This document shows, in pieces, positions 3,939-10,682 of a stretch of 10,682 nucleotides of DNA. Position numbers and translations under genes: made by a program. The notes under the pieces are model-generated. The model worked only from the letters and a program-made list of their open reading frames with translations, had not been told where the DNA came from and made no database searches. Position 1 is the first letter of the stretch, and the number at the start of each line of letters is the position of its first letter. This stretch comes from a virus (lineage: Duplodnaviria > Heunggongvirae > Uroviricota > Caudoviricetes), in the IMG/VR virus record IMGVR_UViG_2541047502_000022, positions 1 through 10,682 of that record. One strand, 5' to 3'.

Positions 3939-4238
3939 ATGAAACTTAAATATTCTGGCTTAACTGCCAGTGGCAACACTCACCCTAAATTTACGCGCGG
4001 TGATATTTACCGCGACCAGTACGGCGGCACGGTAATGATTAAGGGCGTGGAAGAACGGCGCGTAACCTACCGCCGTGAAGGTTACGAATATGATTGCGTG
4101 ATGCCTGTTTATCAGTTCCGGCGTGATTTTTCTCTGGTACAGACCGCGCCGCATAACGTGCCCACCAGCAACGCCAGGGCACGGGCAAACATCCAGAAGC
4201 TGAAAACCATGGTTAACGGATTCAGGGGCAAGAAATGA
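3939..4238 (+). CDS. Hypothetical protein (99 aa)
   Basis: RBS GGAGA 7 nt upstream; its stop overlaps the helicase start (ATGA). No confident motif. Confidence 0.6.
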   Translation: MKLKYSGLTASGNTHPKFTRGDIYRDQYGGTVMIKGVEERRVTYRREGYEYDCVMPVYQFRRDFSLVQTAPHNVPTSNARARANIQKLKTMVNGFRGKK

Positions 4239-5635
4239 AAAGCGCACCGAACTTAAAAAAACAGCCTTACGACAAGATGACCGAAGTCATTATTTTTGCG
4301 GGTAGTGATGCCTGGGCACATGCGAAACAGTGGCAGGAACAGGACGGGCGACTGGCTGGCGATAATGTGCCTCCCGTTGTGCTGGCTGATGATCAACTGG
4401 ATGAACTGGCAGAACTGAGAATCATCGACGAGGGGCGCTATTGTGTCCGGCTGTACAAGGCAGGCCACATCAGGCCATCAAATATTAATGCCATTGCGCA
4501 CAAGCTGGCGGCGGCGGGTGTAACTGATGCGAATTATTACCCCGAAGGGATGCACAGCCATATGCGGGAGAACTGGCGCGAATACCTGGAACGGGTGCGC
4601 GGGAAAGAGCCGGCGGAAGAAAAAAACCACCAGCGAAAAACCACGCTACCGATGAGCGTTGGATCTACCGGATACGACACGCAACTGGATTACGTGGTTA
4701 AGGGGATTATTCCGGCGGTATCGCTATGCAGCATATACGGGGCTAGCGGGTCCTATAAATCATTCCTTGCCGGATCGTGGGCGTGCCATGTTGCCACTGG
4801 TCGCCAGTGGGGAGGCCGCAGGGTTGCACATGGTGCGGTTCTCTATGTGGTTGGTGAAGGCGGTATAGGTGTTCCGCGTCGTGTAAAAGCCTGGGAGGTT
4901 GTGCACGATGAGCAGGTGAAAAATCTGTATCTGGTAAACCGCCCCATCTTTCCGGCTGCCCCGCTTGATGTTGATGAAATGGTTATCGCTGCCCGTCAGG
5001 TGGAGCGGGAAACGGGTAAACCTGTACGCATGATTATTCTGGATACGCTGGCGCGTTGCTTTGGTGGGAATGATGAAAATGATTCCCGTGATATGGGGGC
5101 GTTTATCCGTGGTTGTGACGAACTGAAACGACGCACAGGGGCCACGGTGCTGGTGGTTCACCATTCCGGCAAGGATGAGACGAAAGGCGCGCGCGGTTCC
5201 AGTGCATTTCGTGCTTCGCTGGATGCTGAATACCGGATACGCAGGGAGGACGCAGGAAGCGAAGCGCTGGTTATCTCATGCACCAAAATGAAGGACGCGG
5301 AGGAACTCAAAGAAGCCGCATATGACTTACGCGTGGTGGAGCTTTTTACCGACGCTGACGGTGAATTAATCACGTTGCTGGTGGTGGTGGATGATCCGCG
5401 CCCTCCTGTTGAACTGGAGCGCATCGAGGAGGCAGGGAACAAGACGGAAAACCATACCGCGCTATGGGGGTGCATCCGTTCACGCACACAGAACGGCGAC
5501 AAGTGCACGATCCCGCTGTTACGTGATGACATGAAAAAGCTGGGGTATGAAATGAAAAACTTCCGGCGCTGGCTGTACAAGCTGGAAAAAGATGGGGTTA
5601 TTCGTATCGATGGGGATGATGTAGCGCCGCTATAA
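4235..5635 (+). CDS. Replicative helicase-like ATPase (RepA / AAA_25 RecA-fold family), candidate island replication initiator
   Basis: 466 aa. P-loop YGASGSYKSFLAGSWACHVATG (Walker A), hydrophobic stretch plus Asp MIILDTLARCF (Walker B), and VVHHSGKD, typical of RepA-like hexameric helicases. The N-terminal ~140 aa are uncharacterised. An iteron cluster follows immediately. Confidence 0.8.
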   Translation: MKSAPNLKKQPYDKMTEVIIFAGSDAWAHAKQWQEQDGRLAGDNVPPVVLADDQLDELAELRIIDEGRYCVRLYKAGHIRPSNINAIAHKLAAAGVTDANYYPEGMHSHMRENWREYLERVRGKEPAEEKNHQRKTTLPMSVGSTGYDTQLDYVVKGIIPAVSLCSIYGASGSYKSFLAGSWACHVATGRQWGGRRVAHGAVLYVVGEGGIGVPRRVKAWEVVHDEQVKNLYLVNRPIFPAAPLDVDEMVIAARQVERETGKPVRMIILDTLARCFGGNDENDSRDMGAFIRGCDELKRRTGATVLVVHHSGKDETKGARGSSAFRASLDAEYRIRREDAGSEALVISCTKMKDAEELKEAAYDLRVVELFTDADGELITLLVVVDDPRPPVELERIEEAGNKTENHTALWGCIRSRTQNGDKCTIPLLRDDMKKLGYEMKNFRRWLYKLEKDGVIRIDGDDVAPL

Positions 5636-5835: not shown

Positions 5836-6087
5836 ATGACCCAAAAACGCAGAGACAGAACAGAGCCAAAATATAAAGCGTTAGACATGACTGAGCACAC
5901 CTTAAAGGTGGCAATCAGAACGATAGACCGCCACACGCGGGAAGGATACGCGAAGGAACATCCCGACCTGATAAGCGCATTCATGACCACGGCGGCGGCA
6001 AACTTTGCCACGCTGACAGAACGGGAGATTGCCGAAGCGGAACAGGTAACAACCATCAACGTTAAAACCGGAGAGGTGGAATTATGA
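5836..6087 (+). CDS. Hypothetical protein (83 aa)
   Basis: ORF 5806-6087. ATG 5836 is preferred (RBS GAGAGG 5821-5826); GTG 5806 lies inside the iterons. Its stop overlaps the ssb start (ATGA). Confidence 0.5.
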   Translation: MTQKRRDRTEPKYKALDMTEHTLKVAIRTIDRHTREGYAKEHPDLISAFMTTAAANFATLTEREIAEAEQVTTINVKTGEVEL

Positions 6088-6494
6088 CGGCACAGATAGC
6101 CGCTTACGGGCGGCTGGTGGACGACCCGCAGGTAAAACAGACCAGCAAGGGCACACCGATGACGCTGGCGCGTATGGCGGTATCTTTGCCATGCAGCCAG
6201 GCACAGGACGGACAGGCGACGTTATGGTTATCGGTCATCGCATTTGGCAAACAGGCCGGCTTCCTGGCTAAACATCAAAAAGGCGATGTTGCCAGCGTAT
6301 CCGGCACGATGCAGGTAAGCCAGTGGACCGGACAGAACGGAGAAACGCGGCAGGGCTGGCAGGTTATCGCAGACAGCGTAATCAGTGCCCGCGCGGCACG
6401 TCCAGGCGGGAACAGACGCAAAACCACAGGCACACAGGGTAATCAGCCACCAGCGGGAGGCGATGACCCTTACGGTGATGATATTTCGTTCTGA
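6084..6494 (+). CDS. ssb: Single-stranded DNA-binding protein
   Basis: 136 aa. OB-fold pattern (AAYGRLVDDPQVKQTSKGTPMTLARMAVSL...LWLSVIAFGKQAGFLAKHQKGDVASVSG...QWTGQNGETRQGWQVIAD), a Gly/Pro/Gln-rich linker, and an acidic C-terminal tip DDPYGDDISF like the SSB tail. Confidence 0.8.
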   Translation: MTAQIAAYGRLVDDPQVKQTSKGTPMTLARMAVSLPCSQAQDGQATLWLSVIAFGKQAGFLAKHQKGDVASVSGTMQVSQWTGQNGETRQGWQVIADSVISARAARPGGNRRKTTGTQGNQPPAGGDDPYGDDISF

Positions 6495-6504
6495 GGGGGT
6501 GACG

Positions 6505-6777
6505 ATGGTACATGACCGCATAGCGGAGGAACTGGAGGCGAAAGGCTTTTACCGGAGGGCGGCGGCGCGATGGGGTGAAGTCATGCAGCTGGTGGAGACA
6601 GACAAGGAACGGCATCACATCACGATGCGACGGCTGGAATGTTCAAGGAAGGCACAGAGGGCACCGGAGCCGCCGGATAATTTCGGAGACCTGAAAAAGG
6701 CAGTCGATCGCACTTATGCCGAAATGGGTATAGATGGTGCTGGTGATGAAATATGGCGCAATTACCAGGACAGCTAA
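6505..6777 (+). CDS. PerC-like transcriptional regulator (putative)
   Basis: ORF 6385-6777; likely start ATG 6505 with RBS GAGGGGG. The N-terminal motif AEELEAKGFYRRAAARWGEVM resembles the PerC/Pch family as I recall it; unverified. Confidence 0.55.
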   Translation: MVHDRIAEELEAKGFYRRAAARWGEVMQLVETDKERHHITMRRLECSRKAQRAPEPPDNFGDLKKAVDRTYAEMGIDGAGDEIWRNYQDS

Positions 6778-6782
6778 TCAAA

Positions 6783-6807
6783 CAGCCGGAGAAATCCGGC
6801 TTTTTTT
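6783..6807 (+). terminator. Rho-independent terminator
   Basis: GCCGGA, GAAA tetraloop, TCCGGC, then seven T (16-mer GCCGGAGAAATCCGGC at 6785-6800). Confidence 0.7.
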
Positions 6808-7147: not shown

Positions 7148-7170
7148 AGCCGGAGCAATCCGGCTTTTTT
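7148..7170 (+). terminator. Rho-independent terminator, second copy of the same hairpin
   Basis: AGCCGGA, GCAA loop, TCCGGCT, then six T. Same stem as at 6785 and 9422, one change in the loop. Confidence 0.7.
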
Positions 7171-7218: not shown

Positions 7219-7295
7219 GCATATGAGGTTTTTGGATGCACTGGCGTTCGTGATCGGGATAATCATTTCATAATTTGCAACATAACTCAATATCA

Positions 7296-7323
7296 TTGCA
7301 TAAAATGCAATTCTGATTATAAT
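7296..7323 (+). promoter_or_regulatory. Candidate sigma70 promoter of the capsid operon
   Basis: TTGCAT (7296-7301), 16-nt spacer, perfect TATAAT (7318-7323). The -35 lies within the short palindrome TTGCATaaaATGCAA. Confidence 0.4.
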
Positions 7324-7352
7324 CATAACTGGATAAACATCCAGTTATGATT
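7321..7352. promoter_or_regulatory. 13-bp perfect inverted repeat, candidate operator of the capsid operon
   Basis: AATCATAACTGGA (7321-7333) and TCCAGTTATGATT (7340-7352) with a 6-bp spacer, overlapping the -10 and transcription start region. Confidence 0.5.
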
Positions 7353-7379
7353 TTTTTAGTCGAAGAGGAATTTCTTACT

Positions 7380-7586
7380 ATGGCTGAAGAGAAAAAAAGC
7401 GGTGTTTCGGTGTACATAAGCCCCGAAATCGTGGAGGTGCTCAAGCAGCGCCACAAAAAAAACTATGAAGCTGGCGTTGCGGCTGGACTGGATCCGCTGA
7501 TGACGCCGGAGCCGTCGATAGGTTCACTTGTACGCTCTTATTTACTTGCGGCGCTTGGGATGCATAAAAATTATGGGGGTGAATAA
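7380..7586 (+). CDS. Hypothetical small protein (68 aa), possibly RHH-like, first gene of the capsid operon
   Basis: ATG 7380 with RBS AAGAGGA (7363-7369); ORF-track start 7347 lies inside the operator palindrome. GVSVYISPEIVEVLKQRHKK suggests a beta-strand followed by a helix. Its stop overlaps the capsid gene start (TAATG). Confidence 0.55.
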   Translation: MAEEKKSGVSVYISPEIVEVLKQRHKKNYEAGVAAGLDPLMTPEPSIGSLVRSYLLAALGMHKNYGGE

Positions 7587-8641
7587 TGGCAGGCAAAGCA
7601 ACGGCACTTAACACTAACCAGCTTTTCATGTACCTGAATCGCGGGGATATTGCGGATTTTAAATTCAGCCCTCTGTTTACCACGCTGTTTTTCCCGAACG
7701 TGGCGACATTCAGCACGCAAAACATCATGCTGGATACCCTGGACATTGAAGAAGTCACCATGTCGGCGTTTTGTTCGCCTATGGTGGGTAGCCAGGTTCA
7801 GCGCGATAAAGGGTACGAAACCAGCACAATCAAACCTGGCTACATGAAGCCAAAGCACGAAATCGATCCAACGAAAACCATCATGCGCATGGCTGGAGAA
7901 GATCCGGCACAGCTTAACGACCCTACCTATCGCCGTATGCGCCTGATTACTGGCAACATGCGCCGCCAGATAAACGCCATTAAGGCACGCGTGGAATGGC
8001 TGGCGGTGAATGCGGTAACGACCGGAAAAAACATCATTGAGGGCGAAGGCATAGAACGCTATGAAATCGACTGGAAAATACCGGAAAACTGCATCATAGA
8101 GCAGGCCAAGGGTAAAAAATGGTCCGAGCAGGATAAAGACATGCACGACCCAATCTATGACATCGAGCTTTATGCTGATCAGGCTGGTTGCCCCGCAAAC
8201 GTCATGATTATGGGCGCTGAGGTATGGCGCACATTACGCAGCTTTAAAAAATTCCGTGAGCTGTACGATCTTTCCCGTGGTTCAGAATCCGCCGCCGAAC
8301 TGGCCTGTAAAAACCTGGGCGAAGTGGTGAGCTTTAAAGGCTATCTTGGTGATCTGGCCCTTATCGTCTATTCCGGCAAATACACTGACAGCGATGGTAC
8401 CGAAAAATATTTCCTTGAGCCTGATTTGCTGGTCCTGGGTAACACCAACAATAAAGGGCTGGTGGCCTATGGTGCGATAATGGATCAGGAAGCGGTAAGA
8501 ACGGGCGCAACACAAAACATGTTTTACCCGAAAAACTGGATTGAGGACGGCGATCCGGCGATTGAGTACGTGCAGACACACAGTGCACCGCAGCCGGTAC
8601 CGGCAGATATTCGCAAATTTGTTACCGTCAAAATTGGTTAA
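7586..8641 (+). CDS. Major capsid protein, lambda gpE-like
   Basis: 351 aa. Shared with remembered lambda gpE (341 aa): PGYMKPKHE, YRRMRLI, SFKKFRELYDLSRGSESAAELACKNLGEVVSFKGYLGDLALIVYSGKY, VLGNTN, YPKNWIEDGDPA and the C-terminal VTVKI. RBS GGGGTG upstream. Confidence 0.9.
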   Translation: MAGKATALNTNQLFMYLNRGDIADFKFSPLFTTLFFPNVATFSTQNIMLDTLDIEEVTMSAFCSPMVGSQVQRDKGYETSTIKPGYMKPKHEIDPTKTIMRMAGEDPAQLNDPTYRRMRLITGNMRRQINAIKARVEWLAVNAVTTGKNIIEGEGIERYEIDWKIPENCIIEQAKGKKWSEQDKDMHDPIYDIELYADQAGCPANVMIMGAEVWRTLRSFKKFRELYDLSRGSESAAELACKNLGEVVSFKGYLGDLALIVYSGKYTDSDGTEKYFLEPDLLVLGNTNNKGLVAYGAIMDQEAVRTGATQNMFYPKNWIEDGDPAIEYVQTHSAPQPVPADIRKFVTVKIG

Positions 8642-8653
8642 CGGGGGGATTCT

Positions 8654-8989
8654 ATGGACACTCCATACATTGAGTTATTTGCAGGCAGTCAGCAGGTATC
8701 CACGACGTTGGTACATTTTGCCGCTGATGCTGGCGTTATTCAGGAATTTACCCCGCTGATGCTGGCAGACAATGGCGAGTTTAAGCCGTGGGATGGTCAG
8801 GAATCTGGCAAGGCTGTTTATCTGACCTCGTACCCTGTGGACACGTCAAAGCAGAAATCAGCACAGTGTTACAAGACGGGGATATTCAATATTGCCGCCG
8901 TTAACTGGCCTGAGAGCGTCGACACCGATGCGAAAAAATGCGCCGCCTTTGCGGGTTCCGGCGTATCCGTTCAGCCGCTGGCCCGATAA
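8654..8989 (+). CDS. Head decoration protein, lambda gpD-like
   Basis: 111 aa. Shared with remembered lambda gpD (110 aa): TPLMLA, WDG, YKTGIF, WPE, AAFAGSG. RBS GGGGGG upstream. Confidence 0.85.
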   Translation: MDTPYIELFAGSQQVSTTLVHFAADAGVIQEFTPLMLADNGEFKPWDGQESGKAVYLTSYPVDTSKQKSAQCYKTGIFNIAAVNWPESVDTDAKKCAAFAGSGVSVQPLAR

Positions 8990-9001
8990 GCAGGGGGAAC
9001 G

Positions 9002-9415
9002 ATGGCAACGAATGAAAGCATCATGACGCTACCGCTGGCGAGTAAATTTAAAGTCGAAGCGCGGGCAATGGCTGACAGAGGTTTATCAACCTATGAGGCC
9101 GTATATCAACTAAACAAACTGGAAGAGCAGGACAAGCCGTGCGCTGATGCGATTATGGCGCTTCATGAGCATAAAGACTATCAGCCGCTGTTGCGTGCAA
9201 TGGCAAACGTGCCTTGTATCGATGTTGGTACGGCTAAAAGCATCCTTAGCATGACCATAGAGCAGGAACGTCCGAAGGTTGCGCCGGAACTTACCGCAGC
9301 CTTTGAAAACTTTATGGACATGCACAGCCCGCAAGCCGTATCAGCTGGCATGGCATACGATGGCAGAAACCAGGGCGATGACGGCGACATCGATCGCATA
9401 CTGAAAACCATCTGA
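9002..9415 (+). CDS. Hypothetical protein (137 aa) between the decoration gene and cos
   Basis: RBS AGGGGGAA upstream, followed by a terminator. No motif recognised. Confidence 0.65.
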   Translation: MATNESIMTLPLASKFKVEARAMADRGLSTYEAVYQLNKLEEQDKPCADAIMALHEHKDYQPLLRAMANVPCIDVGTAKSILSMTIEQERPKVAPELTAAFENFMDMHSPQAVSAGMAYDGRNQGDDGDIDRILKTI

Positions 9416-9419
9416 GACA

Positions 9420-9443
9420 AGGCCGGAGAAATCCGGCTTTTTT
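9420..9443 (+). terminator. Rho-independent terminator, third copy of the GCCGGAGAAATCCGGC hairpin
   Basis: GGCCGGA, GAAA loop, TCCGGC, then six T. The 16-mer at 9422-9437 is identical to that at 6785-6800. Confidence 0.7.
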
Positions 9444-9620
9444 ACGGGTCCTTCCTGGAATTATGGCCCGTTACGGGGCGGCGACCTCGCGGATTTTCGC
9501 TATTTATGAGCCTTTTCAGGGTGGTGGTGGTGGTTTTGTTGTTTGATCTATCTTTATGAATGAAAAGGGAAAGATGCAAGCAATACACCAACCTGAAGCA
9601 GTAATTAAGTTGGTGTATTA
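9444..9620 (+). other. Lambda-type cos site (cosQ-like, cosN, divergent cosB)
   Basis: 9444-9500 reads ACGGGTCCTT...GTTACG GGGCGGCGACCT CGCGGATTTTCGCTATTTATGAG. The 12-mer at 9476-9487 is identical to the lambda cohesive end as I remember it, and both flanks are near-identical to the lambda right end and left end. Downstream (9500-9620) diverges from lambda cosB and carries a (GGT)4 run (9519-9533) and an 11-bp inverted repeat AATACACCAAC / GTTGGTGTATT (9584-9594 / 9609-9619) abutting the Nu1-like start. Confidence 0.75.
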
Positions 9621-10163
9621 ATGAAATCTCATCTGATGAACAAAAAAAACATGGCGAAAAGCTGCCGTGTAAGTGCGACAGCGTTCGACAAGTGGGGAGT
9701 AACTCCCGTTGAGCGTAAAGGCCGTGAGGCGTTTTATGATGTTGCCAGCGTGATAGAAAATAGGGTTAACAATGCAATTAGCCAGCTTATAAACGACAAA
9801 GGCGAGATTGACGATGATGAACTTTTACGAGTCAGGATCAGATTACTGACAGCACAGGCAGAGGCGCAGGAACTTAAAAACGATCGCGATCGCGGTGACG
9901 TGATTGATACTGAGTTTTGCCTGTACGCGCTTTCAAAGCTGGCGAGTCAGATTTCATCAATCATGGACAGCCTCCCGCTTACTATGCAAAGGAGCTTCCC
10001 ACAGATTACCCCCGCCATGCTGGACAGGCTTAAAAGGGAAGTGGTTAAAGCCTGTAATGCCAGTGCCAGAGTTGCCGACAACCTCCCACAGATACTGGCT
10101 GATTACTTGAAAGAAACAACCGGAAACGTACCGGAAAAGTTGCTACAGAAGAAAGGCGAGTAA
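9621..10163 (+). CDS. Terminase small subunit, lambda Nu1-like
   Basis: 180 aa. The C-terminal two-thirds align with remembered lambda Nu1 (LTAQAEAQELKNDRDRGDVIDTEFCLYALSKLASQISSIMDSLPLTMQRSFPQI...LKREVVKACN versus lambda RLTRAQADAQELKNARDSAEVVETAFCTFVLSRIAGEIASILDGLPLSVQRRFPEL...LKRDIIKAMN). The N-terminal DNA-binding region is divergent. Alternative start ATG 9636. No terminase large-subunit gene follows. Confidence 0.85.
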   Translation: MKSHLMNKKNMAKSCRVSATAFDKWGVTPVERKGREAFYDVASVIENRVNNAISQLINDKGEIDDDELLRVRIRLLTAQAEAQELKNDRDRGDVIDTEFCLYALSKLASQISSIMDSLPLTMQRSFPQITPAMLDRLKREVVKACNASARVADNLPQILADYLKETTGNVPEKLLQKKGE

Positions 10164-10272: not shown

Positions 10273-10682
10273 GTAAGCGTACAGCGAGGGCCGTATTGAC
10301 GGGGATGTGTTATTCAGCTGGCAGTGCTATGCGCCACGGAAGCAGTTCGCTGACCCGGTTGACCGGCCAGTCTGCTATGACGCCAAGCACATGGCGAAGG
10401 TAGCTTTCTGGATCCACGTCATTCAGTTTGCACGTCCCGATCAGGCTGTACAGTAGCGCTCCCCGCTCACCACCATGATCAGAGCCGAAGAACAGGAAGT
10501 TTTTACGACCCAGACTGACCGCCCGCAGGGCATTTTCAGCGATGTTGTTGTCGATTTCCACCCAGCCATCGTTCGCATAGTACGTCAGTGCCGGCCACTG
10601 GTTAAGTGCGTACGCGAACGCCTTCGCCAACTCTGAGTGTCGCGACAGGGTCTTCATCTTTTCACGCAACCAGCTTTCCAGG
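10273..10682 (-). mobile_element. IS66-family insertion sequence, partial (one end plus transposase 3' region), continues beyond the window
   Basis: GTAAGCG at 10273-10279 resembles IS66-family termini, and the adjacent minus-strand ORF encodes an IS66 TnpC C-terminus. The element runs off the window edge. Confidence 0.65.
10310..10682 (-). CDS. IS66-family transposase, C-terminal part (5' end lies outside the window)
   Basis: The translation [75 protein letters not shown] matches the conserved IS66 TnpC C-terminus. The reading frame stays open to the window edge upstream of the ORF-track Met at 10669. Confidence 0.8.

Follow-up and report, generated by a model that had tools for sequence, protein, structure and literature searches.

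Capsid genes are found in 21 of the 29 reference Gram-negative phage-inducible chromosomal islands (PICIs), where they are dispensable for transfer (PMC10111431). Two such genes of the Escherichia coli island EcCICFT073, c1499 and c1500, have been noted as capsid and decoration genes (Fillol-Salom et al., 2018; PMC6092414), and because single knockouts of the shell or cementing gene show no laboratory phenotype, their purpose is an unexplained puzzle. Here we describe the capsid cassette (7380-9415, + strand) of a sister island of EcCICFT073, contained in a 10,682-nt stretch of DNA from IMG/VR virus record IMGVR_UViG_2541047502_000022 (the whole of this stretch is referred to below as the window). 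The element is a classical Gram-negative PICI of E. coli, of the O157:H7 EC4115/TR01 type, and has been entered as the 11.2-kb PICI of O157:H7 EC4115/TW14359 (Fillol-Salom et al., 2018, Table S1; PMC6092414); helper induction and high-frequency transfer have been demonstrated only for EcCICFT073. The cassette is likewise a known feature, already described in the literature. The new detail is that it constitutes a complete shell kit, in which a Nu3-type scaffold accompanies the shell and decoration proteins.

An earlier note on this DNA, made from the sequence alone, had proposed four cassette open reading frames (ORFs), and all four proved to be present on the + strand, matching the same four coding sequences in the RefSeq annotation of O157:H7 TR01. 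As the note had supposed, the 351-aa product of the second ORF (7586-8641; the c1499 homolog) is a major capsid protein of the lambda gpE family: residues 28-349 match Pfam Phage_cap_E (PF03864) with an E-value of 5.5e-50 (170.7 bits against a cut-off of 22.9), and comparison with the lambda capsid structure 7VI9 gives an E-value of 1.6e-80. The protein is also approximately 97% identical to PDB entry 3BQW, deposited as a 'putative capsid protein of prophage', and an experimental structure of this shell protein therefore already exists. Its identity is 43% to lambda gpE and 46-47% to the shells of phage 21, PhiR5_1/PhiR12 and Gifsy-1, and nothing closer than 47% was found among 50,697 phage genome records. 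The third ORF (8654-8989; the c1500 homolog) encodes, again in line with the note, a 111-aa head decoration (cementing) protein of the gpD/SHP family, which matches Pfam HDPD (PF02924) with an E-value of 5.1e-18 (65.7 bits against a cut-off of 29.1). The closest solved structure is that of phage 21 SHP (1TD0, E 1.7e-13), and the PhiR5_1 and lambda counterparts are 35-36% identical. A search of NCBIfam returned no matches for any cassette protein.

The note had described the cassette as having no scaffold, a view that is not upheld. By sequence homology, the 137-aa product of the fourth ORF (9002-9415; the c1501 homolog) is a stand-alone Nu3-type internal scaffold. The protein matches the C-terminal end (positions 495-567 of 583) of PHROG 53, 'head maturation protease', with an E-value of 4.7e-9, and in translated searches (tblastn) its sole matches were to the 3' end of the gene for the C/Nu3 protease-scaffold in PhiR12 and PhiR5_1. 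At the protein level, BLASTP aligned it at 37% identity over 83 residues (E 3e-10) to residues 416-493 of the 501-aa C/Nu3 protein, a segment that lies past the S49 peptidase domain, which ends near residue 293. Profile-profile comparison (hhalign) gave a probability of 96.7%. We also built a hidden Markov model (HMM) from six Nu3-type scaffolds, namely lambda Nu3, phage 21 gp6, PhiR5_1, Gifsy-1, N15 gp6 and one metagenomic protein, in each of which a repeat of approximately 45 residues occurs one to three times ahead of an FxxFMxxHSP tail. When this model was run on every ORF in the window and in three related loci, together with 500 shuffles of the query, the 137-aa ORF scored 46.9 bits (E 2e-13) and the best of the shuffles 6.9 bits. 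The alignment is colinear, with profile positions 66-179 lying on residues 8-122, and spans two Nu3 repeats and the FxxFMxxHSP tail. Taken singly, lambda Nu3 gave a weak match (E 0.013), and BLASTP against it gave none. The island scaffold is not nested in a protease gene C, but occupies a gene of its own downstream of that for the decoration protein, and no S49 or ClpP protease is encoded in the window.

From its position, the same protein had been given a possible FI-like role. No Pfam match to lambda FI (PF14000) was obtained, BLASTP against lambda FI reached an E-value of only 0.44 over 13 residues, and the FI protein of PhiR5_1 does match PF14000; with similarity to FI absent and homology to Nu3 present, we rejected this assignment. 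Word-based and exhaustive protein searches with the 137-aa protein recovered almost only close E. coli relatives, the others being a 134-aa protein (40% identity) and one 195-aa Nu3-like protein. Sequence searches of the PDB with this protein and with the small terminase discussed below yielded nothing meaningful, and an AlphaFold2 model computed without an alignment had a pLDDT of 45 and was unusable. Some copies are named 'phage head-tail connector protein' at NCBI, which may echo the old term 'head-tail preconnector' for the C/Nu3 gene product. Our literature search found no paper linking Nu3 with PICIs.

Selection on the cassette was assessed across 80 IMG/VR loci whose shell proteins are 91-100% identical to that of the window, with dN/dS (the ratio of nonsynonymous to synonymous substitution rates) pooled over pairwise comparisons. 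The shell gene is intact in all 80 loci (dN/dS 0.14), the 68-aa gene in 79 of 80 (0.26), the decoration gene in 77 of 78 (0.10) and the scaffold gene in 66 of 71 (0.28), the exceptions among the last being two frameshifts and three deletions. For the small terminase, dN/dS is 0.18, and for the experimentally proven RppA, taken for comparison, 0.19; the values for shell and decoration genes thus lie below that of RppA. Against the shell gene of a Salmonella island, dN/dS is 0.12, at saturated dS. Purifying selection therefore acts on the cassette genes, and the cassette is not a decaying remnant. Moreover, shell, decoration, scaffold and small terminase proteins are only 35-47% identical to any of the 50,697 phage records, indicating a long-resident satellite lineage rather than a recent capture; on these comparisons the gene lineage is satellite-specific.

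These data bear directly on whether the cassette consists of dispensable captured late genes, either left over from recombination with a helper prophage or kept as a backup from a helper-embedded past, with no present role. Such an origin would accord with the dispensability of the shell and decoration genes in laboratory transfer (PMC6092414), with the fact that related integrases target prophage gene E and that the islands concerned carry an E of their own (PMC10111431), and with the swapping of cassettes between islands, an example being the ClpP-protease/shell fusion that fills the same slot in RM11911. It is nonetheless unlikely, given that the shell gene is intact in every locus at up to 9% divergence, that shell and decoration genes are held at dN/dS values of 0.10-0.14, that no phage shell exceeds 47% identity and that E. 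coli and Salmonella share a conserved promoter region.

No portal, protease or large terminase could be found in the window, where no ORF has sufficient size or similarity and none gives a family match; the only ORFs longer than 300 aa with family support are those for the integrase, RepA and the shell protein. Since the island is without them, these three components must come from a helper, and the reliance on helper machinery suggested by the earlier note is in this respect confirmed. As to what the cassette does, we tentatively favor, at a little short of evenly balanced confidence, a redundant, self-consistent shell kit that would assemble on the helper portal. In this scheme, shell protein, scaffold and cement would form a mutually matched set, assembling a DNA-fillable shell on an initiator of helper portal and protease; the helper large terminase, brought to the island cos site by the island small terminase, would fill this shell, and the particle would be finished with tails from the helper. 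Where the helper is lambda, phi80 or the resident CFT073 prophage, its own shell would suffice, leaving the kit redundant in laboratory crosses, and the kit would be of benefit where the helper's shell genes are defective, interrupted, limiting or incompatible. A gpD-type protein such as that of lambda binds only the expanded, DNA-filled gpE lattice. A constrained decoration gene beside a constrained shell gene and a matching scaffold thus suggests that island shells are built and filled. The Shine-Dalgarno sequences ahead of all four ORFs, a conserved promoter-like region and a terminator of the cassette's own also speak for the kit.

Several observations weigh against this proposal. Single deletion of c1499 or c1500 in EcCICFT073, with the rest of the cassette intact, left both transfer by resident prophages and interference with lambda unchanged, and all packaged DNA was phage-sized (PMC6092414). 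Lambda was not blocked when cassette genes were expressed one at a time (PMC6739421). Of 71 related islands, 5 have a frameshifted or deleted scaffold gene. The tetA marker of the deletion strains sits past the c1501 stop codon; we had entertained disruption of the scaffold gene by c1501::tetA, and rejected it when the primer arms placed the marker after that codon. Dispensability in the laboratory is, we believe, most readily explained if the helper's shell makes that of the island redundant.

The same genetics speak to two further explanations. The earlier note had raised the possibility of smaller capsids, and an island shell and/or scaffold could conceivably redirect capsid size as Ccm and CpmB do, forcing small capsids that hold one genome of approximately 11 kb and exclude that of the helper. 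The island does have homologs of shell and scaffold, the two protein types that Staphylococcus aureus pathogenicity islands (SaPIs) use (PMC6893505), and PmCI172, a Gram-negative PICI that likewise carries a capsid gene, produces small capsids. Yet in the sister island DNA packaged with lambda is all phage-sized and neither deletion relieves interference (PMC6092414), packaging of Gram-negative PICIs has been reported to occur as concatemers of phage length (PMC10111431), and, judging from known lambda packaging limits, four 11.2-kb copies, at approximately 45 kb, would fit a lambda head. The scaffold gp6 of phage N15, which builds full-size, lambda-sized heads, is also 137 aa long, and the length of the island scaffold is therefore no hint of small capsids. 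Size redirection is accordingly very unlikely in our estimation, and a change of capsid size, of which the sequence gives no indication, is unsupported.

Alternatively, island shell proteins could co-assemble or compete with the phage shell or portal and so poison capsid assembly, a role against the phage rather than in transfer. PICIs commonly interfere at the capsid stage, and island proteins that are 35-47% identical to lambdoid head proteins are near enough for mixed contacts; interference with lambda nevertheless persisted in the E and D deletions (PMC6092414), and among singly expressed genes only c1503 (RppA) blocked lambda and phi80 (Fillol-Salom et al., 2019; PMC6739421). A decoy would moreover need no matched decoration protein under a dN/dS of 0.10, and we regard this explanation as decidedly unlikely.

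A G-rich Shine-Dalgarno sequence precedes each of the four ORFs, and the ATG of the shell gene overlaps the stop codon of the 68-aa ORF (7380-7586; the c1498 homolog), to which it is translationally coupled. For the 68-aa gene, 7380 is the likelier start, as the other candidate ATG, at 7347, falls within a conserved hairpin. Upstream, a perfect -10 hexamer, TATAAT (7318-7323, +), which is nearly invariant among upstream variants and lacks a good -35, is a candidate regulated promoter of the cassette; at its -35 position stands a palindrome, TTGCATAAAATGCAA (7296-7310), a candidate operator or activator site whose TTGC...TGCAA is kept in 49 distinct upstream variants, Salmonella included. Overlapping the -10 element, a terminator scan detected a 14-bp hairpin followed by a T-run (7321-7358, +), with a predicted RNA fold of -20.4 kcal/mol (z -7.0); among 18 variants, 94% of cells pair and three pairs show compensatory changes. 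This hairpin is probably a terminator insulating the cassette from upstream transcription, so that a regulated promoter would appear to be embedded in an insulating terminator. Between E. coli and Salmonella, the non-coding stretch 7265-7360 is 81% conserved, as against a lower 68% for coding sequence, and blastn of the upstream region against phage genomes found no matches.

At its other end, the cassette is closed by an intrinsic terminator (9419-9443, +), a hairpin plus T6 at -16.6 kcal/mol (z -4.2). The terminator hairpin, AGCCGGAG(A/C)AATCCGGCT followed by a T-run, occurs in three copies, at 6784-6801, 7148-7165 and 9421-9438, which stand after the PerC gene, after a 74-aa ORF and after the scaffold gene, respectively. 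The recurrence of one hairpin three times indicates that the late region is split into separately terminated units.

Immediately beyond the cassette lies a lambda-type cos site (9445-9620, +), comprising a cosQ-like sequence (9445-9458, +), a cosN, GGGCGGCGACCT (9476-9487, +), that is identical to the 12-base end of lambda, and, on the + strand within the same interval, a cosB region that resembles neither that of lambda nor that of PhiR5_1. In this divergent cosB region, an 11-bp inverted repeat, AATACACCAAC / GTTGGTGTATT (9582-9619), abuts the start codon of the gene for the small terminase (TerS) and may be a binding site specific to the island's TerS or an element controlling translation. 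TerS itself (9621-10163, +) is of the Nu1 type (PF07471, E 3.2e-23) and shares 42% identity with Nu1 of PhiR5_1 and 36% with that of lambda; none of the 50,697 phage records exceeds 44% identity. Its C-terminal half is better conserved than its DNA-binding N-terminus. In lambda, the C-terminal half of the small terminase binds the large terminase. A second, inverted copy of cos is found just past the point matching 10273 in TR01, ZH063 and O104:H21 (locus L001, 15011-15086), in TR01 at a distance of 38 bp; it matches the published description of two cos sites in EcCICFT073, and in the window has been displaced by an IS66-family element.

The 68-aa protein belongs to phrog_3255 (E 2.5e-46), a family of unknown function, and tblastn against phages gave no matches. 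The earlier note had likened it to ribbon-helix-helix (RHH) proteins. The AlphaFold2 model is a strand-helix-helix with a pLDDT of 73, and profile matches, to RHH_1/BrnA, are weak and confined to 3 of 13 family members; an RHH fold is weakly supported, and the protein is a possible RHH-type regulator or assembly accessory. Two alleles of its gene, approximately 78% identical in nucleotides, adjoin shell genes that are approximately 95% identical (window 7380-7586 against loci L007/L008, 8250-8456), placing a recombination boundary at the junction of the two genes. The O157-type allele was found in 31 of the 80 loci and the CFT073-type in the other 49.

Related loci reveal further modularity on both sides of the cos site. 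In ZH063 the same cassette is followed by a 144-aa Rpp-type protein in place of TerS, and among 62 loci with sufficient sequence the downstream gene encodes TerS in 38, an Rpp protein in 13 and other products in 11. Conversely, RM11911 (L006, 7085-8998) has the same cos and TerS, and in the cassette slot a single gene for a 637-aa ClpP-protease/shell fusion (PF00574 plus PF25209), indicating that shell cassettes of different phage head types are swapped into one slot. A Salmonella island (L005, 1-587; L004, 9001-12025) lies directly after a prophage gpJ tail gene and is thus a helper-embedded PICI. Its order is a 77-aa ORF, E, D, a 79-aa ORF in the scaffold position, cos and two tandem Rpp-like winged helix-turn-helix genes; the order 68-aa gene, E, D is common to this island and the window, at 53-68% identity. 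The 79-aa protein resembles a Nu3 tail by eye, but its HMM score of 6.7 bits is at the level of the shuffles, and we make no claim for it.

The remainder of the window accords with the classical Gram-negative PICI plan: an integrase at the left end (243-1493, +), an AlpA regulator (1858-2046, +) and a replication module with a RepA-type helicase (4235-5635, +), all in one direction (+), in an element whose 11.2 kb fall within the approximately 10-15 kb of that class, with a chromosomal att site and without tail or lysis genes, family searches of the window proteins having found no tail or lysis families. SSB is encoded at 6084-6494. The match to O157:H7 TR01, where the island lies between roxA and phoQ, is 99.96% over 10,272 bases, and from 10273 to 10682 the window consists of the end of the IS66-family element (GTAAGCGTACAG...). 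We considered whether the window might be O-island 51 (OI-51) and rejected this identification, as that name belongs to the capsid-forming PICI (cf-PICI) EcCIEDL933, which occupies the same att site. Of 5426 complete E. coli genomes, 594 carry the cassette at a coverage of at least 80%. An Rfam search of the window gave no matches, and a scan of genome contigs confirmed no relatives. A 99-aa DUF4222 protein (3939-4238) has an RGD motif at residues 20-22, the motif that defines RgdR, a regulator of the locus of enterocyte effacement, and a PerC-family regulator is encoded at 6499-6777; these are accessory virulence regulators aboard a mobile satellite. With RgdR and PerC homologs on the island, its routes of transfer bear on how virulence regulators spread in enterohemorrhagic E. 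coli.

A complete matched kit, with shell and decoration genes under stronger constraint than rppA, turns the puzzle into a testable question: does the island make its own shells when those of the helper are unavailable? We consider it possible, if doubtful, that PICIs of this kind represent a stage midway between satellites that take over whole capsids and cf-PICIs, with their own shell (E, D and a Nu3-type scaffold) placed on portal, protease, large terminase and tail components stolen from a helper. Such an arrangement would enable the use of helpers with broken or incompatible shell genes, such as the many defective lambdoid prophages of O157 strains, and the 68-aa protein would be the switch of the cassette.

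Among described systems, EcCICFT073 is the closest. Its c1498-c1501 are the same four genes in the same order and of the same lengths (68, 351, 111 and 137 aa), its shell protein is approximately 97% identical, roxA and phoQ likewise flank its attachment region, and downstream of the cassette come the same terminator and cosN. It differs in having RppA where the window has TerS, sequence similarity stopping approximately 30 nt past cosN, and in its 68-aa protein, a divergent allele approximately 66-69% identical to that of the window. The head genes of phage 21, PhiR5_1, lambda and N15 offer homologous shell (43-47%), decoration (35-36%) and scaffold (37% over 83 aa) proteins and an identical cosN. 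In these phages, however, the order is scaffold-D-E, whereas the island has E-D-scaffold, with the scaffold un-nested, an extra 68-aa gene before E, and no protease, portal, W, FI or FII.

Satellites that encode capsid components of their own provide the remaining comparisons. The cf-PICIs (EcCIEDL933, OI-51) share with the island the integrase/alpA/rep backbone, the att site and a satellite-encoded shell protein, but they also have a portal, a prohead protease, head-tail connectors, HNH and a large terminase, genes that are absent from the window, and they make small capsids. Similarly, Ccm of SaPIbov5 and CpmB of SaPI1 are satellite homologs of a helper shell and scaffold protein, respectively. 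These proteins remodel shells made of helper protein into small capsids; the island, by contrast, carries a matched set of shell, cement and scaffold.

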